Assembly: GCA_026023565.1 (NCBI GenBank)
Contig: JAPETS010000020.1
Span: forward strand, 124,001 to 188,000
DNA from: Cirrosporium novae-zelandiae
Lineage: Eukaryota
Direction: 5' to 3'
DNA length: 64,000 nt
A program made the position numbers and the translations under genes. The notes below the pieces were generated by a model. It had not been told where the DNA came from. It ran no database searches and was given only the letters and a program-made list of their open reading frames with translations. Shown in pieces: positions 25,989-41,420 of this stretch (position 1 is its first letter; every line of letters begins with the position of its first letter).

Positions 25989-26317
25989 TTGCTGACCTCT
26001 ACTAAAAATCCTAGGGGATGAGTATTGAAATGTGTTTGATAGGCTATATATTTAAGTGTTGGATAATATATCAAAACTATCAATTAACTTTCGTTATTTA
26101 AGATTCTGTTTATAGTTTTAAATCCATTCTCCCTATTCGTTATCGAGACACTTAGATCACATGACCTGACGTAATTAACTCCTACTTGGACTAATCCGAT
26201 AGAGGTCCGATTTCTAATCTCGAAACAATAATTTTATATTTTACAAAGTACCGTCATTGAAACCATTGAATTCCATTCATACCTTACTCCACTACTCCGC
26301 CATACATTTGTTTGAGA

Positions 26318-27265
26318 ATGGCATCAAAGAATATCTCAAGACCAGCCAAGCGCTTACTACAAGAAGTTCGATCGCCGGTTGTTTGTGGTGATGCTTCTCG
26401 GTTCTTTGCCGCAGCTCCGCAATATCTTCAACGCAGCAGATTATCCACCATTACATCCCCCAACACCTATCGAAGACCAAGATTTCAGAGAACAAATAGG
26501 CAGACCTTCAACCTTCAGAGCTCCAGATCCATATTTATACAGACCGAACCCACCCCGAACGCTGACGCTCTCAAATTTATTCCTAATCACAAAATACTTC
26601 CAGAAGGATTACCTTCATCATTTCTAGAATATTTATCGCCGAGATCCACCCTTGCTCCTCCTTATCCGTCGCCTCTTGCCTCTAGGCTCCTCAATATTGA
26701 CGGTGTTAAATCTGTTTTCTATGGCTCCGACTTCATTACCGTTACGAAAGAGGCAGATGTCAATTGGGCTCATATTAAACCCGAAGTTTTTAGCCTGATC
26801 ACCGAGGCAGTTACATCTGGTGAACAGATCGTAAACAAAATCGATAAAACTGCAGATAACTCCGGTCAGCAAGGCGGCGAGGTCGAGAGCTTAGGCTATC
26901 ATGAAGATGACGATGAAGTTGTTGGAATGATCAAGGAACTTTTGGAAACACGGATAAGACCTGCAATCCAGGAAGATGGAGGAGATATTGAATATAGAGG
27001 GTTTGAAAATGGGATGGTACTGCTCAAGCTCCGAGGGGCGTGCCGGACGTGCGATTCCAGCACCGTCACTTTGAAGAATGGCATTGAGAGCATGCTAATG
27101 CACTATATTGAGGAGGTAAAGGGCGTTACGCAAGTGCTTGACGAGGAAGAGGAGATCGCGATGCAAGAGTTTGCTAAGTTTGAAGCGAAACTCAAACAGC
27201 AAAAGGGCCCTGACGCAATCGCATCTACGGTCGGTAAAGGTAGTCTTGATACGGTGGAGGCTTAA
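26318..27265 (+). CDS. NFU1: Mitochondrial Fe-S cluster protein Nfu1
   Basis: Presequence, Nfu_N (IFIQTEPTPNADALKF) and NifU-C (IRPAIQEDGGD...GACRTC) domains; divergent from the zf-HIT gene. Confidence 0.95.
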   Translation: MASKNISRPAKRLLQEVRSPVVCGDASRFFAAAPQYLQRSRLSTITSPNTYRRPRFQRTNRQTFNLQSSRSIFIQTEPTPNADALKFIPNHKILPEGLPSSFLEYLSPRSTLAPPYPSPLASRLLNIDGVKSVFYGSDFITVTKEADVNWAHIKPEVFSLITEAVTSGEQIVNKIDKTADNSGQQGGEVESLGYHEDDDEVVGMIKELLETRIRPAIQEDGGDIEYRGFENGMVLLKLRGACRTCDSSTVTLKNGIESMLMHYIEEVKGVTQVLDEEEEIAMQEFAKFEAKLKQQKGPDAIASTVGKGSLDTVEA

Positions 27266-30227: not shown

Positions 30228-31495
30228 GTATGTCATGTCTCTAGATTCCCCTCGACTTTCGTTGGCCATATCCGAACGAACAATTCCTTCCAGTTCCATA
30301 TCCCTAATTACCCTATATTTTCAGGAGTTTTTTCCAATTAGATCGGTACGCTTTCAGCGTCATTGCCGCACTCGAAATTATCACCAACAGCCTTAGACAA
30401 ACAATGCGCTAACGTCCATAATCTAGATCGTGCTGCTTAGCCGCGTAAATACATGTCCTTTAGCAGCGTTTGAAGTCCTGAAAAATCAGCGAGGGAGATC
30501 AGAATAGATAAGCCTAGGTAAGAGCCAAGGCATTAAGCGTTTTAATTCCCACGATACCTTTTTTCGAAGCTTCCGTCCATCCCCTCGCGTCTATCCTCCA
30601 TATAGCGTATACGTCAAGTGTATCCTGAGCTCCAAATAATTGAATGTTATCAATGGGACTTAGATCTTCATTGCATTATCCTCCCGTGCCTTACGACGGA
30701 ACAATTGCATGATTCTTTCATTGAATATCGCACGCTGCCGACTTGAAGAATCGTTCATCTTTCCTACCCCGAGTGCTCCATTAAGATTCATATACTTTCG
30801 CTACATTTGATGAGAAGGGACTCATCAATGTGATATTTAGGATCAACAACAGGCGGACTTGTATTATTCGAATCCCATTGTTGGCAGCTGGTACAGGGTC
30901 ATTCTTCGAATCAGTTTCATTAAACTCCGAGTTGGACCTTTTTCAATTCTCACTTAGACACCTAAAATATCGTCAAAACTGAAACTATCCTACGAATTTG
31001 TTGAGTTGCCCACCGCACCGCCTCACCACACGACACTGTCACACGGAACTCTTATAACGCTACCCTCTCTTTGATATTCATATACTTCGTTCCACATTGC
31101 TCGACCAAGTCCATTCATGAAGGTCTTCTAACTTTTTAGCTGGTAAGTTATTTAATTCTTTAGCAGCGAAATATTCCTCTAAAGTTACTACAAGTATTAA
31201 CTCCCATTCTTTAGCCCAACAACTCATCGATTGGATGTCAAGTTCTGTTAACCGGAATTGAGTGCTTAGAACCTGGTAAGCTGCCTATTTCATACCTGTT
31301 TAGCGGCTGTTCAGCTGTCAAGCCGTACTCTTAATCACCCCACATTCTGATCACGAGTCTACCAGGGATCCCTGACAGAAGGACGCTTAAATTCGGCGAA
31401 CATCAAACAACTTTGTACCTTGCATGAACTCACCAACATCCTCAAGCAACCTATAGTCATCATTATCTCCCGGCACTGAGAAGCCAGACTCGAAC
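30228..31495 (+). promoter_or_regulatory. Multi-intron 5' leader with uORFs upstream of the PSP1-domain gene
   Basis: Donor/branch/acceptor sets at 30228-30324, 30346-30426, 30518-31139, 31143-31214 and 31276-31365; uORFs at 30453, 31235 and 31424. Confidence 0.55.
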
Positions 31496-34275
31496 ATGGC
31501 GTCTCCTTCCGGCCGTGCTGTGACACAAGCACCTAAAAATGGCCGTCCTTCCTTCAGCACCGCACCATCCTTACCATCACCCAACGCATCGATGCTCTTG
31601 GAGAAAACAAAAGCTGGTACTGCTATTCGACGGTCCACACCGGACTCCGAAGTTTTTGTGCAAAGTGATGACGAACAAGACCATCGCGCACGAACGCAAA
31701 CATCGCAACCACCGAATCCTGCAGCCACCAAAGTTAATCGAAGATCCTCGTGGCTCAACGATATTCCACCTGCAGCGCAACGCAAAGGGTCGATAGCAGC
31801 CAGCAGCTCTCTTTCGGGTGCCAACTCCTATCCTAATACACCCTCTGGAGATCAAGGCCCGTTTAGCAGTGGATCTATAACAAGTCCTACTATCGGATCT
31901 AATGGTGCTTGGGGACAAACGTTTTGGGGTACGGGTATCTGGAACAATGACCCCAGGAAGCCTGCGCCAGCAAGAGTATCTGAGATTTTACCTTCACCAT
32001 CATCAACAAATGGCATGGCCTCTGGTGATTACTTTGAGTTGAAAAACAATCCCGCATTTGGAAATGTGACTGAATCTGCAATTCCCTTTCCAATACCCCT
32101 ACACCCGACACCGAAGACATATCGCTCGCAATCATATTCCGTCGGCCAGCTTGATCCTGATTCTCTAAACTCTTTACCGTCAAATGCAGGCGTCCCGCTC
32201 TATGCAAATCGGAATAGGAATGGTTTGCAACATCGGCCTTCTCGACCAAGTATGCTTGGAAATGTTGATGAAAATGCACCACTCGGCCGGCTTCACGAGG
32301 TCGAGGATGATGATAGCACAACCGGTTCGGAGGACGATCGTCATTGGTCTATATCCCAAGCGCAAAGGGTGAAGCAGCTTGCATTGGAGAATGCGTTATT
32401 GAAACAGGCATTTAGCCAAGCGGAACAGGGTGGATTGCCTCATCGTGCCAGTGTTTCATCTGCAGTTTCTGGTGGATTTTCTCGACAGTCTGCAGGCTTT
32501 CTCAATCAAGCCCACATGCAAAGTGGAAACGGGCTTGATCTCGCAGTAGAGGACATCGACGAACTCAGTGACTATCATGGACATGGATCCCAGATGCCTA
32601 CTGGTAGAAGGTACAGTGAATACAGTGCTAATGCCGACAATCAGTACTCGCCCATGTTTCCCGAAAATCGTAAGTTGGAAAGCATTAAAAAGGGATTTTG
32701 GCAGAGCTCCCCCGGTATTGGTGGCTTCGCCGAACCTCCGCAGAGCAGGAGGCACTCCTTTGCTGATATGCCCACACGCCGTGGGTCGATGAATTCCGTA
32801 GCCGGTGAACCCACGACCCGAAGAACAGGCATGACTCAAGTGTCTGGGTCAACCGCAAACGAGGATATGCTAGGACGATTAGATGACGGTACAGCTCGTC
32901 CCATACGAGAAGACAATAGTGAGTACGCCTTTTATCATATATTTCAAGCCATCGAAGAAAAATCCATGAGACATAGACATTTACAAGCCCGTTGTTATGC
33001 AGCTTCGTATTTCGCTGGATTGGACCCTTCAAGTCGTGGAGGGGAAGTCCAGTCGCCAACGACGCCCATCAGTTCTCTACAAGCATATGGGGTCCCAAAC
33101 CCATATGGCCGCCCCCAACATTTTCCGTCTTCACATCATTACCATCAGAGTCTGGTTATCGTGACTTTTAAATGTTATCGCGCCGATGCCTTCTATGTCC
33201 AAGAGGATACTGGTTTGCAGGTCAAGCAAGGCGATCTTGTCATCGTAGAAGCCGATAGAGGAACCGATCTAGGTACAGTTGCCTGTGAGGGGGTTATCTG
33301 GACCAAGGCCAAAGAACTCAAAGAACAATATGCCGAGGAGCATTACAAATGGCTCATGATGTTTTCTCGCCACAACCAAAGTGGGAATCCAAATGCCGTA
33401 AATCCAAACGGCCTGCCAAACCACGGCGGGCAAGGAAGTGCGGTTGGTGGCATGGGTCCACCTGGTCACCACAACCTGCAAGAGCCTGGCTCTGGTGAGC
33501 TGAAGCCGAAGATGATCAAGCGTCTAGCTCAGAATCACGAAATTCAAGCACTTCGAGATAAAGAAGGGAATGAAGCAAAAGCCAAACGTGTTTGCCAGCA
33601 AAAGGTTATTGAACACCGATTGAATATGGAGATTCTCGATGCCGAATTTCAGATGTACGTAACAACCTATTTGGTCCGGGTCATAAATGCTAATGCTTTT
33701 TTAGGGATTGGAAGAAACTTACCTTCTACTACTTTGCTGATACATATATCAATTTTAACTCTCTTGTGACTGACCTCTTCAAGATTTATAAGACTCGGAT
33801 TTGGATGTCAGCCATAAATCCTGCCTCCTTTGCTAGTCCTTCTGCAGGGCTTCAGCTACCGACCGGCCTAGGTGCTGGGAATTTAGGCCATGGCCGTGGG
33901 AGTCCAGGGGATCGTCGACGACATCACGAGCAGTCCTATGGCAATCGATCTCCTGGTTCTTTCCCGCAACCCGACGTTGGCCGTGATGCCGATTCACTCC
34001 AGGTAGGGGGGTTCGTCAATCCGTATGTTCAATCTTACCAGCAACCCCCCATTGGAGTTCGTCCGACAGGACTTGGTGTGACCGGATTTGCTCAGCCTGG
34101 TCAAGCACCTCTTGACAATTTCAATGGGTTCGCATCCGGCACACCAAGTGGCCAAGATCCTCAATTAGGGGAATATCCGGGCGGGGCGAATAGCAATCTA
34201 CGAGGTCTTCCAGGAATTCATCCTATCGGGAGCGAATGGCTCAACAACTTCCAGGGGCTGTCACTCGGTTCATGA
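31496..34275 (+). CDS. PSP1 C-terminal domain protein
   Basis: Exon 31496-33654, intron 33655-33704, exon 33705-34275. Motifs GDLVIVEADRGTDLG, MEILDAEFQM|DWKKLTFYYFA and LFKIYKTRIWM. Confidence 0.9.
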
Positions 34276-35834: not shown

Positions 35835-36440
35835 TTATCGGGAACTGATTCCTTGACACTGCTCTTCTAAAACCTTCAATTCTTCTACCACTTCCTCTCC
35901 AAGCTCTTTCCCCCCTCCAGGCAATTTTCCGAGTCGACCATATCTCAGGTCACTCAGTTCACCCACTCGACCTCGCATCTCCTCTAGGAGCTTCTTCTCG
36001 TCCTCTTCCATACCATCAACCTCCTTCTGCACATATTCGCATGCTGCCTCTAACTCGGCTATCATACTACTAGGTGAGTGCTGTTTTCTCCTCCCCGCTT
36101 CAATCCCCACAGTAGACAAATCCATTGGCCCATCGAAAGCTTCTCCCATCATAATATCACCGTTCGACGGTATTGCAGCGTCAGCCTCGGCCCTTCTTGT
36201 GCGTGTGATCTGCCGCCGCACCTTCTCTCCACGTTTTGCTTCCTCTTCAATGTTGAGGCGCACCTGGTCGGCATCGCGAGAACGCTGATGTTGAATACTA
36301 GCATAGAGATAGCGAATTTGTGGGTTAGATTGTAGGGAGGCGGGGAAGAGAGCTGTGAATTCGGACAAGGTGAGGAATGCCGGAAGGGGGGCGGGGGAGA
36401 GCAGGAAGTTGGTGAGGATACTGGACTCTGTAGGAGCCAT
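35835..36440 (-). CDS. Cnl2/Nkp2-family kinetochore protein
   Basis: ATG at 36440: MAPTESSILTNFLLSPAPLP...LFP..QIRYLY; C-terminal ELSDLRYGRL; coiled-coil. Confidence 0.8.
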   Translation of the reverse strand: MAPTESSILTNFLLSPAPLPAFLTLSEFTALFPASLQSNPQIRYLYASIQHQRSRDADQVRLNIEEEAKRGEKVRRQITRTRRAEADAAIPSNGDIMMGEAFDGPMDLSTVGIEAGRRKQHSPSSMIAELEAACEYVQKEVDGMEEDEKKLLEEMRGRVGELSDLRYGRLGKLPGGGKELGEEVVEELKVLEEQCQGISSR

Positions 36441-37100
36441 TGAAGCAGAGGAATCGGTACTCTCTATAAGAAGGTAATATAATAATACGTGCCTCAATAT
36501 GACCCAGCTGAAAGAAAGAATTTGCTGCTATCGTCTTGTGCACGCAACGGAGAACTCGATGTTTTGCCCGCAACGGAGGAGCTGCGGATGGACTGCGATG
36601 TCCAAAAAGAGTTTAGCTTAGTATTTTATGACGACAATACCATATTGAATTGGACTGGATACCTAGGTATGTATTGAGGTGTATTCAGTCAATGGCCTGA
36701 AAATTCCATGGTTATTGGTATTCTTCTCCTCGAGTGTTGCTAAGGACCAAGGTACGACTATTGTTCCATTGTCGATCTATTGGATTGAGTCTCTATTCAT
36801 CACAATATTTTAGGGTTGACCGAGAAAACGCGCTTGCTTCTCACTTCTACCAACTGGACTATTTCAACCTCTACACCAACTCACACACTTCACCTCAACT
36901 CTTTTAAATTTCCACAACCAGCCACTTTCTTCCTTCAAAAATCTTTCTCACACTTGACCACTTGACTAGAACTTCATCCTTCTTCTCCCTCTTCTTCTGA
37001 AGCTCATCGTTTACACTTATTCAGACTATCCATTTACTTCATCTCATCAGTAAGATATCTCCCTACTAAGCTTACGCCTCAAGTGAAGGTTGTCTTTACG

Positions 37101-39789
37101 ATGGCACCCTCAAAGGAGCTCACTTATGAGAAAAACGAGCGGGTCTTCTGTTTCCACCATGACTTGCTCTATGAGGCCAAGATCTTGGACATAGAACCTG
37201 GAGATCCAAACGATGAAACTAAACCAATAACTTACCAAATCCATTACAAGGGCTGGAAGCATACGTGAGTTCTTTCCTGCTATCCAAGTCCCCAAGATCT
37301 TCGAGCTGCAGTCTATTGTTGTCATCTCTCTATTCTTCCCTTAAGGGAGAAGTGAGGGTTTGATTTGCTATCTTACGTCTGCGTTGTGCTTAGCACCTCG
37401 CTGCTATGTTTGTTTGAGTAGCAGCCTTTGAAATAGGTTGACTCTATATTACTTTTGAAGAGCATGATGTCTTGTATCCTCTGCTACTTACTTCTAATCT
37501 CTAGCTCTTTGTGCGTTTCAAAGTTGAGTTGTATTTTTCGGTGTTGAGTTTTGCATCACATGTCCACCTCTCTTGAGGTGATCTGTCCGGAGCAACACAA
37601 CACAAGCCTTCCATGCGTTCACTAGGAGCATCAGTATTGCATCCTCTTCTGTGGAAACAAATTCTGAGCTCTCTGTTGATTTTTGCTGTTCGTCCTTCTC
37701 ATGCATGAGATTTACCAAGTGTGATTTGTGTTGTTTACCAGTTACGCGTGGCGATACTAGCATATGTTACTTATTACATCCTTTCACATTTAATACTCCG
37801 ATGACGGCTTGGAGCTTGCCTCATTGCCTGTATATTTGCTAACGTGATATGCACTCTAGGTGGGACGATCATGTTCCAGTAGAGCGTCTTCGAAAGTTTA
37901 CCGACGAACACCGAGACCTTGCCAATACCCTGCGCAAGCAGAAGCTCGAAGATCAAGCTCGCGAACAAGCGGCTGCTTCGTCCAAGAAGAAACGCCCAAC
38001 CGCCACCGCGGCTTCCGACTTTAGTTCTCAGCGCGGATCCGAAGATTCCCCCGCACCCACAGGAAGGAGAAGAGCTGCAGCTGCTCAGAAGGACTATGAA
38101 ATTGAAAAGGTTGGTTCGACAACACAATCCACCCCAAATTCCCCATCTTCCCAGCGTTCATCTCCCGGAACGGCCATTCACCCCGAAGGACTGGAGGATT
38201 CCTCGTTTGCAAATCCTTTTCTATATTCCGGACCAGAGGATCATCAAGAAGACAACCAAGTGCCAGAACCATCAGAGCCCGCACAGTCAGAACCTCTCCA
38301 GAAGACCAAGAAAGGAGCAAGTACTATAAGATCGAGCTACAATCTCCGCGCGCGAAAACGCCCAGCTCTGGAGTCGGCGGTCTTAGAGGAAAAGCCAACA
38401 AAGCGTCGCAAGTGCGGCGGCAAAGAAGCCTCCAAACCAACTACAGCGACACTGATCACAAGGGTGACTCGATCACAGTCCGTAGCACTAGCCGAGAAAT
38501 CCACCACAGCACCTCAACGTAGAGTTCGAAAGACTCGTGCTCCCAACACTCAACAGCCAACCACAAGAGTGACAAGATCCCAATCGGCAGCACCAGAGAA
38601 ATCTTTAAAGAGAGAAGCGCCTCCAAATGGAGGAGTGCACGAGCCTTTAAAAAAAAGACTAAAGACGCAAGTTAAAGACAAGCTACAGTCGATCTCTAAA
38701 GATCAGATGGATCATGATGGTCAACGTACTGAGGATGCTCTCGCCCATAAAATGGAGGTCAATAAGGCAGAAGAAAATATGCCTATTCAGAACGAGCCCC
38801 CTGTTTTGGTTCAGCCAGCACCTACTGCTGAGGATAAAATCATGGTTGACGAAGCATGTCTTCCTGTTGCAGAAGAGCATACACAAGCGCGTTCTCGAAA
38901 ACACCAGTCCAGTGGTAAAGGTAAAGGCGGGACCACCAGATCCAATACGCAACGTCGAGGAACCAGAACTAACCCAAACCCTGGAGATGAACAACCCGGA
39001 CCATCGTTCCCTAACATTGAACCCAAACCCACTTCAAAAGCTAAAAAGACCCAAAAGTTGAATGTCAATAATAACGCACCCTTGCAGGAATCGAACTTCG
39101 TCTCGCGCCCGTCCGTGATGCTTCCCATGTCAGATACCCTAAAATCGCTTGCCGTCGATGATTGGGAAGCCATCACGAAGACCCTTGCCCTTGTGCCCCT
39201 TCCCTCAAAGAATCCCGTAAACAAAATCATGGATGATTATTACGCCGACCAGAAGACAAAGCGACGTGAAGGAAGCGCAGATATGGATCTGCTTGAAGAG
39301 TGTGTTGCTGGAATGAAGGAGTACTTTCACAAGACATTGGGCAAGATCTTGTTGTATCGTTTTGAAAGGGATCAATACTTTGAGATGAGCAGGCTGTGGA
39401 CTAACAACCCTGATGGCGTTGTTGACGAAGTGACCGGTGAGATTAAAAAGTATGAAGGACCTGGTGACGTTTATGGTCCTGAACATCTCTTGCGTCTATT
39501 CGGTAGGTTAATTCCTTGTTTTCTTCAGCTTCTCACGATTTCCTCATAATCTCCCACAATCCCCTCTCATGATTACAAATGTACTAACTACAGCCCTTCT
39601 ATAGCTTCTATGCCGGAGCTCATTGCCCAAACGACTATGGATGCCCAGTCTGTTGTCCGCCTCCGCGAAGAAATGACCAAGATGCTTAACTGGCTTGGTC
39701 GTCACGTCTCTGACTACTTTGTCGACAACTATATCCCCGCCAGCGTCGACTACATCGCCAAGGCAAGAGGTGTTGGGGCTCCTCAGTGA
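37101..39789 (+). CDS. EAF3: Chromatin factor Eaf3/MRG15 (chromo-barrel + MRG domain)
   Basis: Exons 37101-37264, 37860-38109, 39088-39502, 39605-39789 (337 aa). Motifs [43 protein letters not shown] and MPELIAQT. Intron 38110-39087 is in frame and stop-free. Confidence 0.93.
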
Positions 39790-41420
39790 AAGAACACACA
39801 AATACGAATATGCGAGGAGACGGGGAGAATATCTGGTGAAGAGTGAGAGGTTATTGGCACTGGTACTGGTTGGAGATATTATGGTACCCTTTAATAAAAA
39901 GTCCAGTCAGTTTGGATTGTACGCAAGGCTGATTGATTGGCTATGATATGGTGTATGGGCCTCTGGGCACGATGTTTCCTACCACCCTTTTTTTCTTTCA
40001 GGTGCTTTGCACCCCCACAAATCAAGACATGGTTGTTGGTTATCACATCATCATGCTTACTTGAACGTGCACGAAGAGGTTGCGTTCTTGGTTGGTTCAG
40101 TACTCATATCCTTTAAAAGACATCTTGTCTATTGATAGAGGAGCCTTCGATACCAAAGATACCAAAAGTGTTTAAAGCAAGCGAGTCGTTTTATGCTTTC
40201 GTACTATTCTCTTTTCAATTCAGTTTATTAGTCTTTTAGTCTTCTAATCCTTTAAGTCCTTCATGCGTGCGTGCGTGCAAGCGAGCAAGCGGGCGAGTTA
40301 AAAATTTAGTGGAGGGATCTTCAATATCCCGTTTCTACCGCTCTAATTGGAGACGAAGAGAATAGGCCTAATGCCATTCTAAGTTCTGTTCTGCTCTGTT
40401 CTTTAAATCGATTTCAAGCGTTCTAATACCTACTTCCCTTTCTTCACTTCTACTCCATCCATCAAAAGTCATGTACATGCAAATGCAACCCGTCCTTCCT
40501 CTACTCAACCACACGGACTTTTTTCCTAAACACCCACACTTCATCTTTGGATCCAGGGGACCCTTGTAAAAAAAAGCGAGCCTTTTTTTCGCTTGGGATC
40601 TTTTGTTTCTGGGGGTGCTGTCTGGGTGGTTAAACAACTCAAAAAAGCTCCAAGGACACACACATACATGCATTCTTGCTCTCCTCACACCTCATGTACA
40701 CGACTCCTACACTGATGGCTTGGATGACCCCTTCTCCTTTCTCCTCCCCCTCCTTCCTCAACCTCCTTCATCAGATCCCCTTGGATCTCCAAAGACTTCT
40801 AGCTTGAAGGTACACCATAGGGTAAAAGGGCAAAAAACAAAAAACAAAAGCGACGGCGGCGGGTTAGGGGGGAGTGAATCCCTAAGATTGGTGTATAGGC
40901 GAGAATACGAGAATAAATCCTTCTTCAAGCCCTCGGGACTAAGTTCCCTTGAGGATGTAGTCGTTGAAGGGTAGTTTCCTGGCATCTCTCGTTTATACAT
41001 ACGGTCTGGGTATTCACCCCCCACTCCTCCTCCTCCATCTTTTTTTAAAAGGCTTCCTAACTTACTCCTGTCGTCCTCGGCTCTTCGTTTTAGATTTTCT
41101 AACTTATTTTCTTTTGAAAGAGAGAGAGAGAGAGAAATATCAGGGATAAAAGGGACTTGGGTTTTTTTCTTGTGAATTTTTTAGACTTTTTTTCTTCTTC
41201 TTTTCATGTTCATTCATTACCAAAAAAGAAAAGAAAAAAGAAAAAAGAAAAGAAAAGCACCCTTAATAGTCCCATCCGGTATGAATTTTTTTTTTCATTA
41301 GCTTAGGATGATGGATGAAATTTACGTGCTTTCATTTCTTTTTTTTAAAAAAATAGATACGTTCGACCAAAAACATTATGAAAATTTATTAAAACCTTGA
41401 ATGTTCGTGCTCTTTCTCTC

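Follow-up and report, generated by a model that had tools for sequence, protein, structure and literature searches.

EAF3 is the subunit that reads histone H3 trimethylated at lysine 36 (H3K36me3) and is common to the acetyltransferase complex NuA4 and the deacetylase complex Rpd3S. For an intron-like segment inside the coding part of a gene, the closest described counterparts are the exitrons, intron-like parts of coding exons that were first described in plants and humans. The window analysed here, a 64-kb stretch of contig JAPETS010000020.1 of Cirrosporium novae-zelandiae from whose first base all coordinates are counted, carries on its plus strand an EAF3/MRG15 gene with a chromo barrel and an MRG domain detected by Pfam, and within the second exon of this gene lies a segment that has the borders of an intron and the reading frame of an exon. 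The segment is best read as an exonised, or largely retained, intron that would encode a basic, disordered insert of 326 amino acids (aa) between the chromodomain and the MRG domain. As in exitrons, the borders are GT..AG, the length is a multiple of three, no stop codon is present, the segment lies inside an annotated coding exon and its product is disordered. In contrast to exitrons, the insert occupies an ancestral intron position that is still spliced in relatives, which makes it look like an intron turned exon and not the reverse, and it further differs in its length of 978 nt and in the lack of a branch site. The insert is a variant of intron exonisation or of the exitron, joined with a short linear motif in a disordered region.

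The spliced product of the gene is 100% identical to the 663-aa protein P0002, which carries the NCBI name Esa1p-associated factor, Cirrosporium novae-zelandiae, and originates from a metagenome-assembled genome; the species is placed in the small class Xylobotryomycetes. The gene consists of the following parts.

37101..37264, plus strand: EAF3 exon 1, from the initial Met to the split Thr55 codon, encoding the N-terminal chromo barrel; the donor GTGAGT comes next, and the translation matches the N-terminus of P0002.

37265..37859, plus strand: intron 1, 595 nt, GTGAGT...CTAAC...TAG, with the A of CTAAC 17 nt from the 3′ end.

37860..38109, plus strand: conserved part of exon 2, with the end of the chromo barrel, a helix and a basic linker ending in ...DYEIEK; it aligns with short orthologues up to EK.

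38110..39087, plus strand: the insert, the 'intron' of the original prediction, 978 nt or 326 codons, GTTGGT...TTGCAG, residues 139-464 of P0002.

39088..39502, plus strand: MRG part of exon 2, starting with ESNFVSRPS; Pfam MRG PF05712, E 1.1e-35.

39503..39604, plus strand: intron 3, 102 nt, GTAGGT...CTAAC...TAG, with the A of CTAAC 17 nt from the 3′ end.

39605..39789, plus strand: exon 3, with the end of the MRG domain (E 2.6e-10) and the stop codon, matching the C-terminus of P0002.

Exon 1 matches the Pfam families MSL3_chromo-like PF22732 (E 1.4e-11) and Tudor-knot PF11717 (E 9.6e-06). Exon 2 in full (37860-39502) is a single open frame and lies in an open frame of 568 codons at 37843-39549; an independent contig from a DNA run, possibly the source of this assembly, shows no differences over 37000-39800. 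When aligned with short orthologues of 320-336 aa, the insert appears as an extra block of 326 residues exactly between ...DYEIEK and ESNFVSRPS, and its removal leaves a canonical EAF3 of 337 aa. The public annotation of the 663-aa protein already counts 38110-39087 as coding. Translation of the insert is implied by this annotation, and the more interesting result, beyond the scope of the original prediction, is that a conserved intron site has turned wholly or partly coding in many Pezizomycotina.

The coding character of the insert is supported by several properties. First, its frame contains no stops, against 11-19 in the other five frames, and none of 100,000 shuffles was free of stops. 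Next, its codon log-odds, trained on 16 other long open reading frames (ORFs) of the window, amount to +0.153 per codon in frame and are negative in the other five frames. As a coding reference, 12 windows from the 16 training ORFs average 0.143 (range 0.037-0.192), and the flanking exons reach 0.19-0.24, with +0.236 per codon in frame for the conserved part of exon 2. The signal extends along the whole segment, with all 12 sliding windows positive in frame and all other frames negative, whereas introns 1 and 3 score negative in every frame and intron 1 has 8, 13 and 8 stops across its three frames. The predicted product of the insert has an isoelectric point (pI) of 9.9 and 65% disorder-promoting residues. 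No Pfam family was detected on six insert-only or nearly insert-only stretches, which comprised the inserts of Cirrosporium and of the related loci L019 and L070, an ORF from the intron of locus L033 and two whole proteins; in four further proteins of that scan the matches are confined to the known chromo and MRG parts. Finally, the insert contains a repeat under purifying selection, described below. The claim of the original prediction that the segment is translated is therefore well supported by one stop-free frame, exon-like codons, the repeat and the public annotation, and 38110-39087 is very probably translated into protein. A purely constitutive exon and an alternatively spliced one appear about equally plausible.

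The quotation marks that had been placed around 'intron' proved apt, as the position of the segment is that of a conserved intron and its GT..AG borders have been preserved. In 79 related loci from metagenome contigs the junction was located without regard to reading frame. A clean boundary is present in 46 of them, and every one of the 46 has GT..AG at this exact phase-0 site; the remaining loci comprise two that are intronless and resemble complementary DNA (cDNA), four with a short intron whose anchor is one base off, and 27 that could not be placed. Fifteen of the 46 introns do not exceed 300 nt and 31 are longer, with a maximum of 3399 nt. Among the long introns, stops or a frameshift disrupt 24 loci; the other seven are open and in frame and reduce to four distinct sequences, which represent three or four lineages (L019/L023, L037-39, L044 and L070). 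A pyrimidine at donor position +3 (GTTCGT, GTTGGT, GTCGGT) is typical of this intron, including obligatorily spliced cases, and the GTTGGT donor occurs also in L032, whose intron contains 32 stops. The conserved GT..AG in the relatives and the shared donor type therefore identify a genuine conserved phase-0 intron position, with a Cirrosporium donor of a working type. Loci with a pyrimidine +3 donor at this site are L003, L009, L024-26, L033, L040-43, L048-51, L019, L032, L037-39 and L044, besides the window itself at 38110; the other introns of those same genes have GTGAGT, GTAAGT or GTAGGT donors.

The open and the interrupted introns differ in their branch sites. A YTRAY branch site at most 45 nt from the 3′ end is found in both true introns of the Cirrosporium gene; among the long interrupted introns of relatives, 15 of 16 have one, whereas none of the five fully open inserts, Cirrosporium included, has YTRAY near the 3′ end; close relatives are present among the branch-site loci, and the independent contrast is roughly 0/4 against 13/14. 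Within the Cirrosporium insert, YTRAY is absent from the region 10-40 nt upstream of the 3′ end, with the nearest CTAAC elements 76 and 118 nt upstream of the end, and a single element near the end resembles a branch site.

39070..39075, plus strand: AATAAC, which does not fit YTRAY; nothing else close to the 3′ end of the insert resembles a branch site.

The interior of the insert offers no strong donor and no usable pair of branch site and acceptor. The branch site of the former intron appears to have decayed and some splicing may persist, as the GT..AG ends would still permit some splicing to the 337-aa EAF3.

Proteins from other fungi extend the comparison. At least 20 extra residues at this point are present in 99 homologue proteins, of which 98 have an insert ending in Q, 56 one starting with V and 40 one starting with AS, and in a first, smaller set all 90 inserts had Q as the last residue; the protein lists favour open inserts, since many entries are ORF calls on genomic contigs and broken ones fall below the length cut-off. 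For the five open cases with DNA, the first V of the insert is GTN and the last Q is CAG, and the AS start, as judged from protein only, would fit a GCAAGT donor. A comparison of the open inserts of L019 and L037 gives an omega of 0.41 (Fisher p 4e-05) with indels of 24, 3 and 33 nt, in a pair whose divergence is uneven along the gene and whose exon-2b control failed, L037 being interrupted there; the other open inserts appear to show signs of protein-level constraint. Between L019 and L037, identity is 95-99% from the 5′ flank through exon 1 and intron 1 into the start of exon 2 and falls to 75-90% from the middle of the insert on, a drop that could reflect a lineage mosaic or a chimeric assembly.

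Long-insert EAF3 proteins of other Pezizomycotina, such as those of Xylographa spp. (540-549 aa), Knufia fluminis (1388 aa) and Podospora aff. communis (585 aa), likewise combine a chromo barrel and an MRG domain with extra disordered sequence at this site, where it separates ...EIEK from EE.F..RP; none of these inserts can be aligned with that of Cirrosporium. The annotations disagree, with the insert counted as coding in Xylographa, Cirrosporium and Knufia and not in Usnea. Judged from these sequences, the site appears to be a conserved intron position that has turned wholly or partly coding in many Pezizomycotina, with the borders kept and the branch site lost in the open cases.

The Cirrosporium insert contains a peptide of eight residues, TRVTRSQS, that is present twice in a region of pI 11.2 also containing KRRK, RRVRKTR and KKRLK clusters.

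38401..38412, plus strand: KRRK basic cluster upstream of copy 1, possibly acting like a nuclear localisation signal.

38458..38481, plus strand: TRVTRSQS copy 1, residues 255-262 of P0002, encoded by ACA AGG GTG ACT CGA TCA CAG TCC.

38518..38538, plus strand: RRVRKTR basic cluster between the two motif copies, from the translation.

38563..38586, plus strand: TRVTRSQS copy 2, residues 290-297 of P0002, encoded by ACA AGA GTG ACA AGA TCC CAA TCG.

The duplication had been reported to differ at synonymous positions only, and this holds true: six of the eight codons differ, each by one synonymous base, and both copies are in the frame of the gene. The flanks that had been described as shared are a more mixed case, in that EKS does follow both copies (after VALA in copy 1 and AAP in copy 2), whereas an upstream PTT is only loosely common to them, as it lies four residues before copy 1 and overlaps the first T of the motif in copy 2. 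The copy pair is the top direct repeat found in the exon, with 35 nt at 77% identity and a spacing of 105 nt, or 35 codons. Shuffling the 326-aa insert 20,000 times produced an exact repeat of eight residues on 3 occasions, and six random substitutions in copy 1 spared the peptide in 242 of 1,000,000 trials. By the Nei-Gojobori method the copies differ at 6 of 7.0 synonymous and at 0 of 17.0 non-synonymous sites, and omega is 0.11 over the 16 alignable codons around them. The in-register DNA identity is 18/24 in the motif core and 36/105 in the upstream 105 nt, so the core alone keeps DNA identity and therefore only the motif is preserved. It should be noted that, once identical peptides are picked, the DNA differences between them are necessarily synonymous; the informative points are the existence of an identical 8-mer and the saturation of its silent sites, not the synonymy itself. 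Either the pair goes back to an old duplication whose motif alone has survived, or the motif arose on two occasions, and in both cases selection has acted on the peptide. Gene conversion as the source of the identity was rejected, as the silent sites would have been homogenised too. In the six-frame translation of the whole window, R[VI]TRS occurs only at the two TRVTRSQS copies.

Whether the motif is conserved in relatives, a point to which the original prediction had tied its reading, receives a divided answer, since no relative of the insert can be aligned while the R-x-T-R-S core recurs above shuffle expectation. RVTRS or RITRS is found in the inserts of P0039 (and its cluster mate P0151), P0100, the Podospora protein P0051 and P0075, as well as in the ORF of the L033 intron. 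The match in Podospora P0051 extends to TTRVTRS, and the relatives of the L033 ORF, including the EAF3 of Knufia fluminis, have up to three copies of R-x-T-R-S. Among 144 homologues, pentamers of TRVTRSQS were observed 5 times against 0.30 expected, R[VIM]TRS 6 times against 0.19 and R.TRS 11 times against 2.09, and none of 300 shuffles reached the observed counts. The best phmmer match of the Cirrosporium insert to the other inserts has an E of 0.063 and is to Podospora, via the motif itself. A Protein Atlas search with residues 225-330 gave no usable match, with all structural neighbours at a TM of 0.35 or lower.

Basophilic kinases follow a consensus with a hydrophobic residue at -5 and Arg at -3 relative to Ser/Thr, and the 14-3-3 mode-1 consensus is R-S-x-pS-x-P, for example at the Chk1 site of Cdc25C. 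V-T-R-S-Q-S in both copies of the motif matches the kinase pattern hydrophobic-x-R-x-x-S, as a sequence match only, and a basophilic kinase site had also been suggested in the original prediction. Both copies contain R-S-Q-S, which agrees with the R-S-x-S part of the 14-3-3 mode-1 consensus though not with its Pro at +2, and the distance of 35 residues between them would be convenient for a dimeric reader. TRVTRSQS, constrained at all eight positions, may be a short linear motif, and constraint on every residue argues for a docking site rather than for mere charge; the peptide is probably a docking or phosphorylation site. Among the mechanisms considered we tentatively prefer a phospho-regulated docking site, in which a basophilic kinase would phosphorylate the motif Ser, the twin R-S-x-S pair could engage a dimeric reader such as 14-3-3, and the site would act as a switch in the contacts of the long form of EAF3 with chromatin or with its partners. 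The principal alternative is direct contact with the nucleosome or with DNA.

Considered as a whole, the locus is best explained by an exonised intron with a repeated, constrained motif, an explanation that we regard as fairly likely to be correct overall, although its phospho-regulated docking part is by itself less likely than not. A number of observations weigh against this explanation. The GT and CAG ends are kept and obligatorily spliced relatives share the donor type, so efficient splicing is possible, and the runs listed for 37000-39800 include one DNA run and no RNA run. Selection on the motif rests on one within-gene comparison, in an insert without an alignable relative: a word-indexed search gave only MRG-based matches covering at most 39% of the query, phmmer and a hidden Markov model of 51 insert tails found no alignable relative of the Cirrosporium insert among 101 other inserts, and phmmer with the 106-aa motif region returned, from 1.84 billion representatives, only P0002 itself and two unrelated repeat proteins. 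The enrichment of the core includes counts from close relatives (P0039/P0151 and P0154/P0155) and corresponds to about four independent lineages besides Cirrosporium, R-x-T-R-S is absent from about 100 Lecanoromycete inserts, and the protein lists have the bias towards open inserts mentioned above. With respect to 14-3-3, mode-1 sites have Pro at +2, whereas copy 1 (V-A-L) has no Pro and copy 2 (A-A-P) has it at +3. Downstream of R-S the sequence is not conserved from lineage to lineage, and the R-S-x-S reading is therefore weakened.

Among the alternatives to phospho-regulated docking, the one with the highest, though still low, probability is that the motif together with KRRK, RRVRKTR and KKRLK forms a basic patch for nuclear import or for binding of nucleic acid (linker DNA or RNA), with no specific protein partner. 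A classical basic cluster lies 10-20 residues ahead of each copy, and in other lineages, e.g. in P0039, P0100 and P0154, KK or KKR stands before the core. Moreover, GRGQKRGRD, a basic element that canonical EAF3 proteins have a short distance upstream of the site, is degenerate in Cirrosporium. In the excerpted text of a structural report, lysines of the yeast Eaf3 chromodomain contact nucleosomal DNA and a lysine-bearing chromodomain helix points to linker DNA (PMC10709384). Such patches, however, tolerate conservative change, while all eight residues of the motif are identical at saturated silent divergence.

The original prediction had likened the motif to arginine-anchor peptides that bind the acidic patch of nucleosomal H2A-H2B, and such an anchor function appears unlikely. 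The motif does resemble HMGN-like and LANA arginine-anchor peptides in being a short, basic, Ser-rich peptide of a disordered region with R-x-x-R spacing and an Arg followed by Ser; the Arg directly before Ser and the second Arg three residues upstream have the spacing of the second and third HMGN-like arginines, and the surrounding region of pI 11.2 belongs to a nucleosome-binding protein. Many acidic-patch binders have an Arg before Ser, and of six peptide complexes with solved structures five show a Ser beside the anchor, but the binders follow no strict sequence pattern (PMC10606924), so the likeness weighs little. Excerpts of another report give as HMGN-like nucleosome-binding motifs RRSARLSA, RRSSRLTS of Dsup and RRSARIAT of yeast Dot5, and describe all three arginines as needed for Dot5 binding (PMC13347269). 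TRVTRSQS has two of these three, the second and the third, and does not fit the strict HMGN-like consensus R-R-S-x-R-[LI]-x-x; the first required Arg is Thr here and the hydrophobic residue after the last Arg is Ser. Rpd3S-type complexes do use the patch, and in the yeast Rpd3S-nucleosome complex, as far as the excerpted description goes, the patch arginine was assigned with AlphaFold help to Rco1, whose N-terminal anchor is likewise a disordered, Arg-bearing segment of an Rpd3S-type subunit and contacts the acidic patch; this anchor lies in another subunit than EAF3, and its assignment rests on AlphaFold prediction (PMC10709384). Finally, an anchor alone does not explain the full constraint on V, T, Q and S, and the canonical short EAF3 proteins function without such a motif. 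A sizeable share of the probability is assigned to none of these readings.

Several further forms of the site were observed in other fungi. The 3399-nt intron of L033 holds an ORF of 935 codons (L033:697-3504, plus strand) that is not in frame with the upstream exon, starts from its first Met with M-A-R-I-T-R-S, has no Pfam family and has P0154, P0155 and P0156 as relatives; in the 1388-aa EAF3 of Knufia fluminis a stretch homologous to this ORF, at 46% identity, is annotated as coding. In the interrupted long introns of L032, L057, L058 and L066 an open frame of 242-602 codons occupies the 3′ part and continues without a break into the MRG exon. Such 3′-open parts have a Met of their own (MAKKRKR in L058 and MARVTRSS in P0075, with P0051 also in the group), and some share the element PKDY-x-YID-x-KG-x-LK; the arrangement suggests an alternative first exon that would give an MRG protein without a chromodomain. 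P0068, P0069 and P0074, which are metagenome ORF calls, combine an MRG domain with the Zn2Cys6 cluster domain PF00172 and may be fusions or read-through into a neighbour.

The inserts of many Lecanoromycetes share a different, conserved element, LMIAGVPxE, which is a further sign of constraint at the protein level, and lack the R-x-T-R-S that Cirrosporium has. In its longer form, approximately Q-D-P-x-x-x-L-M-I-A-G-V-P-x-E, it is located 45-70 residues before the insert end in P0003, P0023, P0030, P0089 and about 50 others, and very long inserts carry variants such as F-Y-A-G-I-P. In Cirrosporium nothing beyond weak resemblances is present, namely FLYSGPED at residue 37 of the insert and another stretch near residue 244. 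The MRG pocket binds FxLP motifs, and, speculatively, the LMIAGVPxE element might be a pseudo-ligand for it.

A more far-reaching proposal, which we consider improbable, is that the EAF3 intron is a splice-selectable coding module across Pezizomycotina. According to lineage and splicing, it would yield a canonical chromo-MRG protein, a chromo-IDR-MRG protein with an intrinsically disordered region (IDR) or an intron-started IDR-MRG protein without a chromodomain, with R-x-T-R-S copies, two of them in Cirrosporium, acting as acidic-patch anchors. If true, the grip of NuA4 or Rpd3S on the nucleosome would be set by splicing. Literature searches, judged by titles and abstracts, found no paper that describes an open intron in EAF3.

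Very unlikely, finally, is that the segment is a real intron that is spliced efficiently, in which case the 663-aa protein would be an annotation artefact, the frame would be open only to make unspliced RNA harmless and the repeat would have no function. Such an intron would agree with the GT..AG ends at a conserved intron site, with the canonical 337-aa EAF3 that excision yields, with the annotation of Usnea florida eaf3 at 327 aa without the insert, and with cDNA-like contigs of 1.1-1.4 kb that encode a form of 323 aa. The proteins P0121 and P0127 come from contigs of this length and have an intact chromodomain and MRG domain, and the P0127 cluster includes Usnea florida eaf3; their MRG part is 95-98% identical to proteins with inserts of 220-238 aa. 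Their templates appear to be intronless, which would point to a spliced form in the relatives of Usnea. On the other hand, the codon usage of the Cirrosporium insert is exon-like in every window, the repeat shows no non-synonymous changes at saturated silent sites, and the segment is without the canonical branch site that 15 of 16 interrupted introns in relatives possess. Moreover, avoidance of stops alone would not preserve a peptide of eight residues twice.

As sources of the open frame, a host for small nucleolar RNA (no Rfam match at E of 1 or lower over 36900-39900), an antisense gene (11-13 stops in the minus-strand frames of the insert) and a mobile element (no repeat besides the motif pair) were each ruled out, and a histone H3 tail mimic is speculation only, as the motif is without lysine at the equivalent position.

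At 595 nt intron 1 is long for a filamentous ascomycete, and it has no Rfam match and no coding signal. The genes nearby are of ordinary fungal kinds and encode a Cnl2/NKP2 kinetochore protein (35838-36527, minus strand, transcribed divergently from EAF3), a PSP1-domain protein whose gene is interrupted by an intron (31457-34272, plus strand) and an Nfu/NifU scaffold (26270-27262, plus strand); no histone gene is present in the window.

The locus provides, with internal controls, a case of an intron position becoming protein, with preserved borders, loss of the branch site, a frame that stays open and the fixation of a new short motif. In practical terms it offers a test set for gene predictors and a defined motif of eight residues for binding and phosphorylation studies. 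For the biology of EAF3, a large lineage-specific insert between its two domains could alter which complex, NuA4 or Rpd3S, the protein joins or how it is placed on the nucleosome, in particular if splicing can remove the insert.

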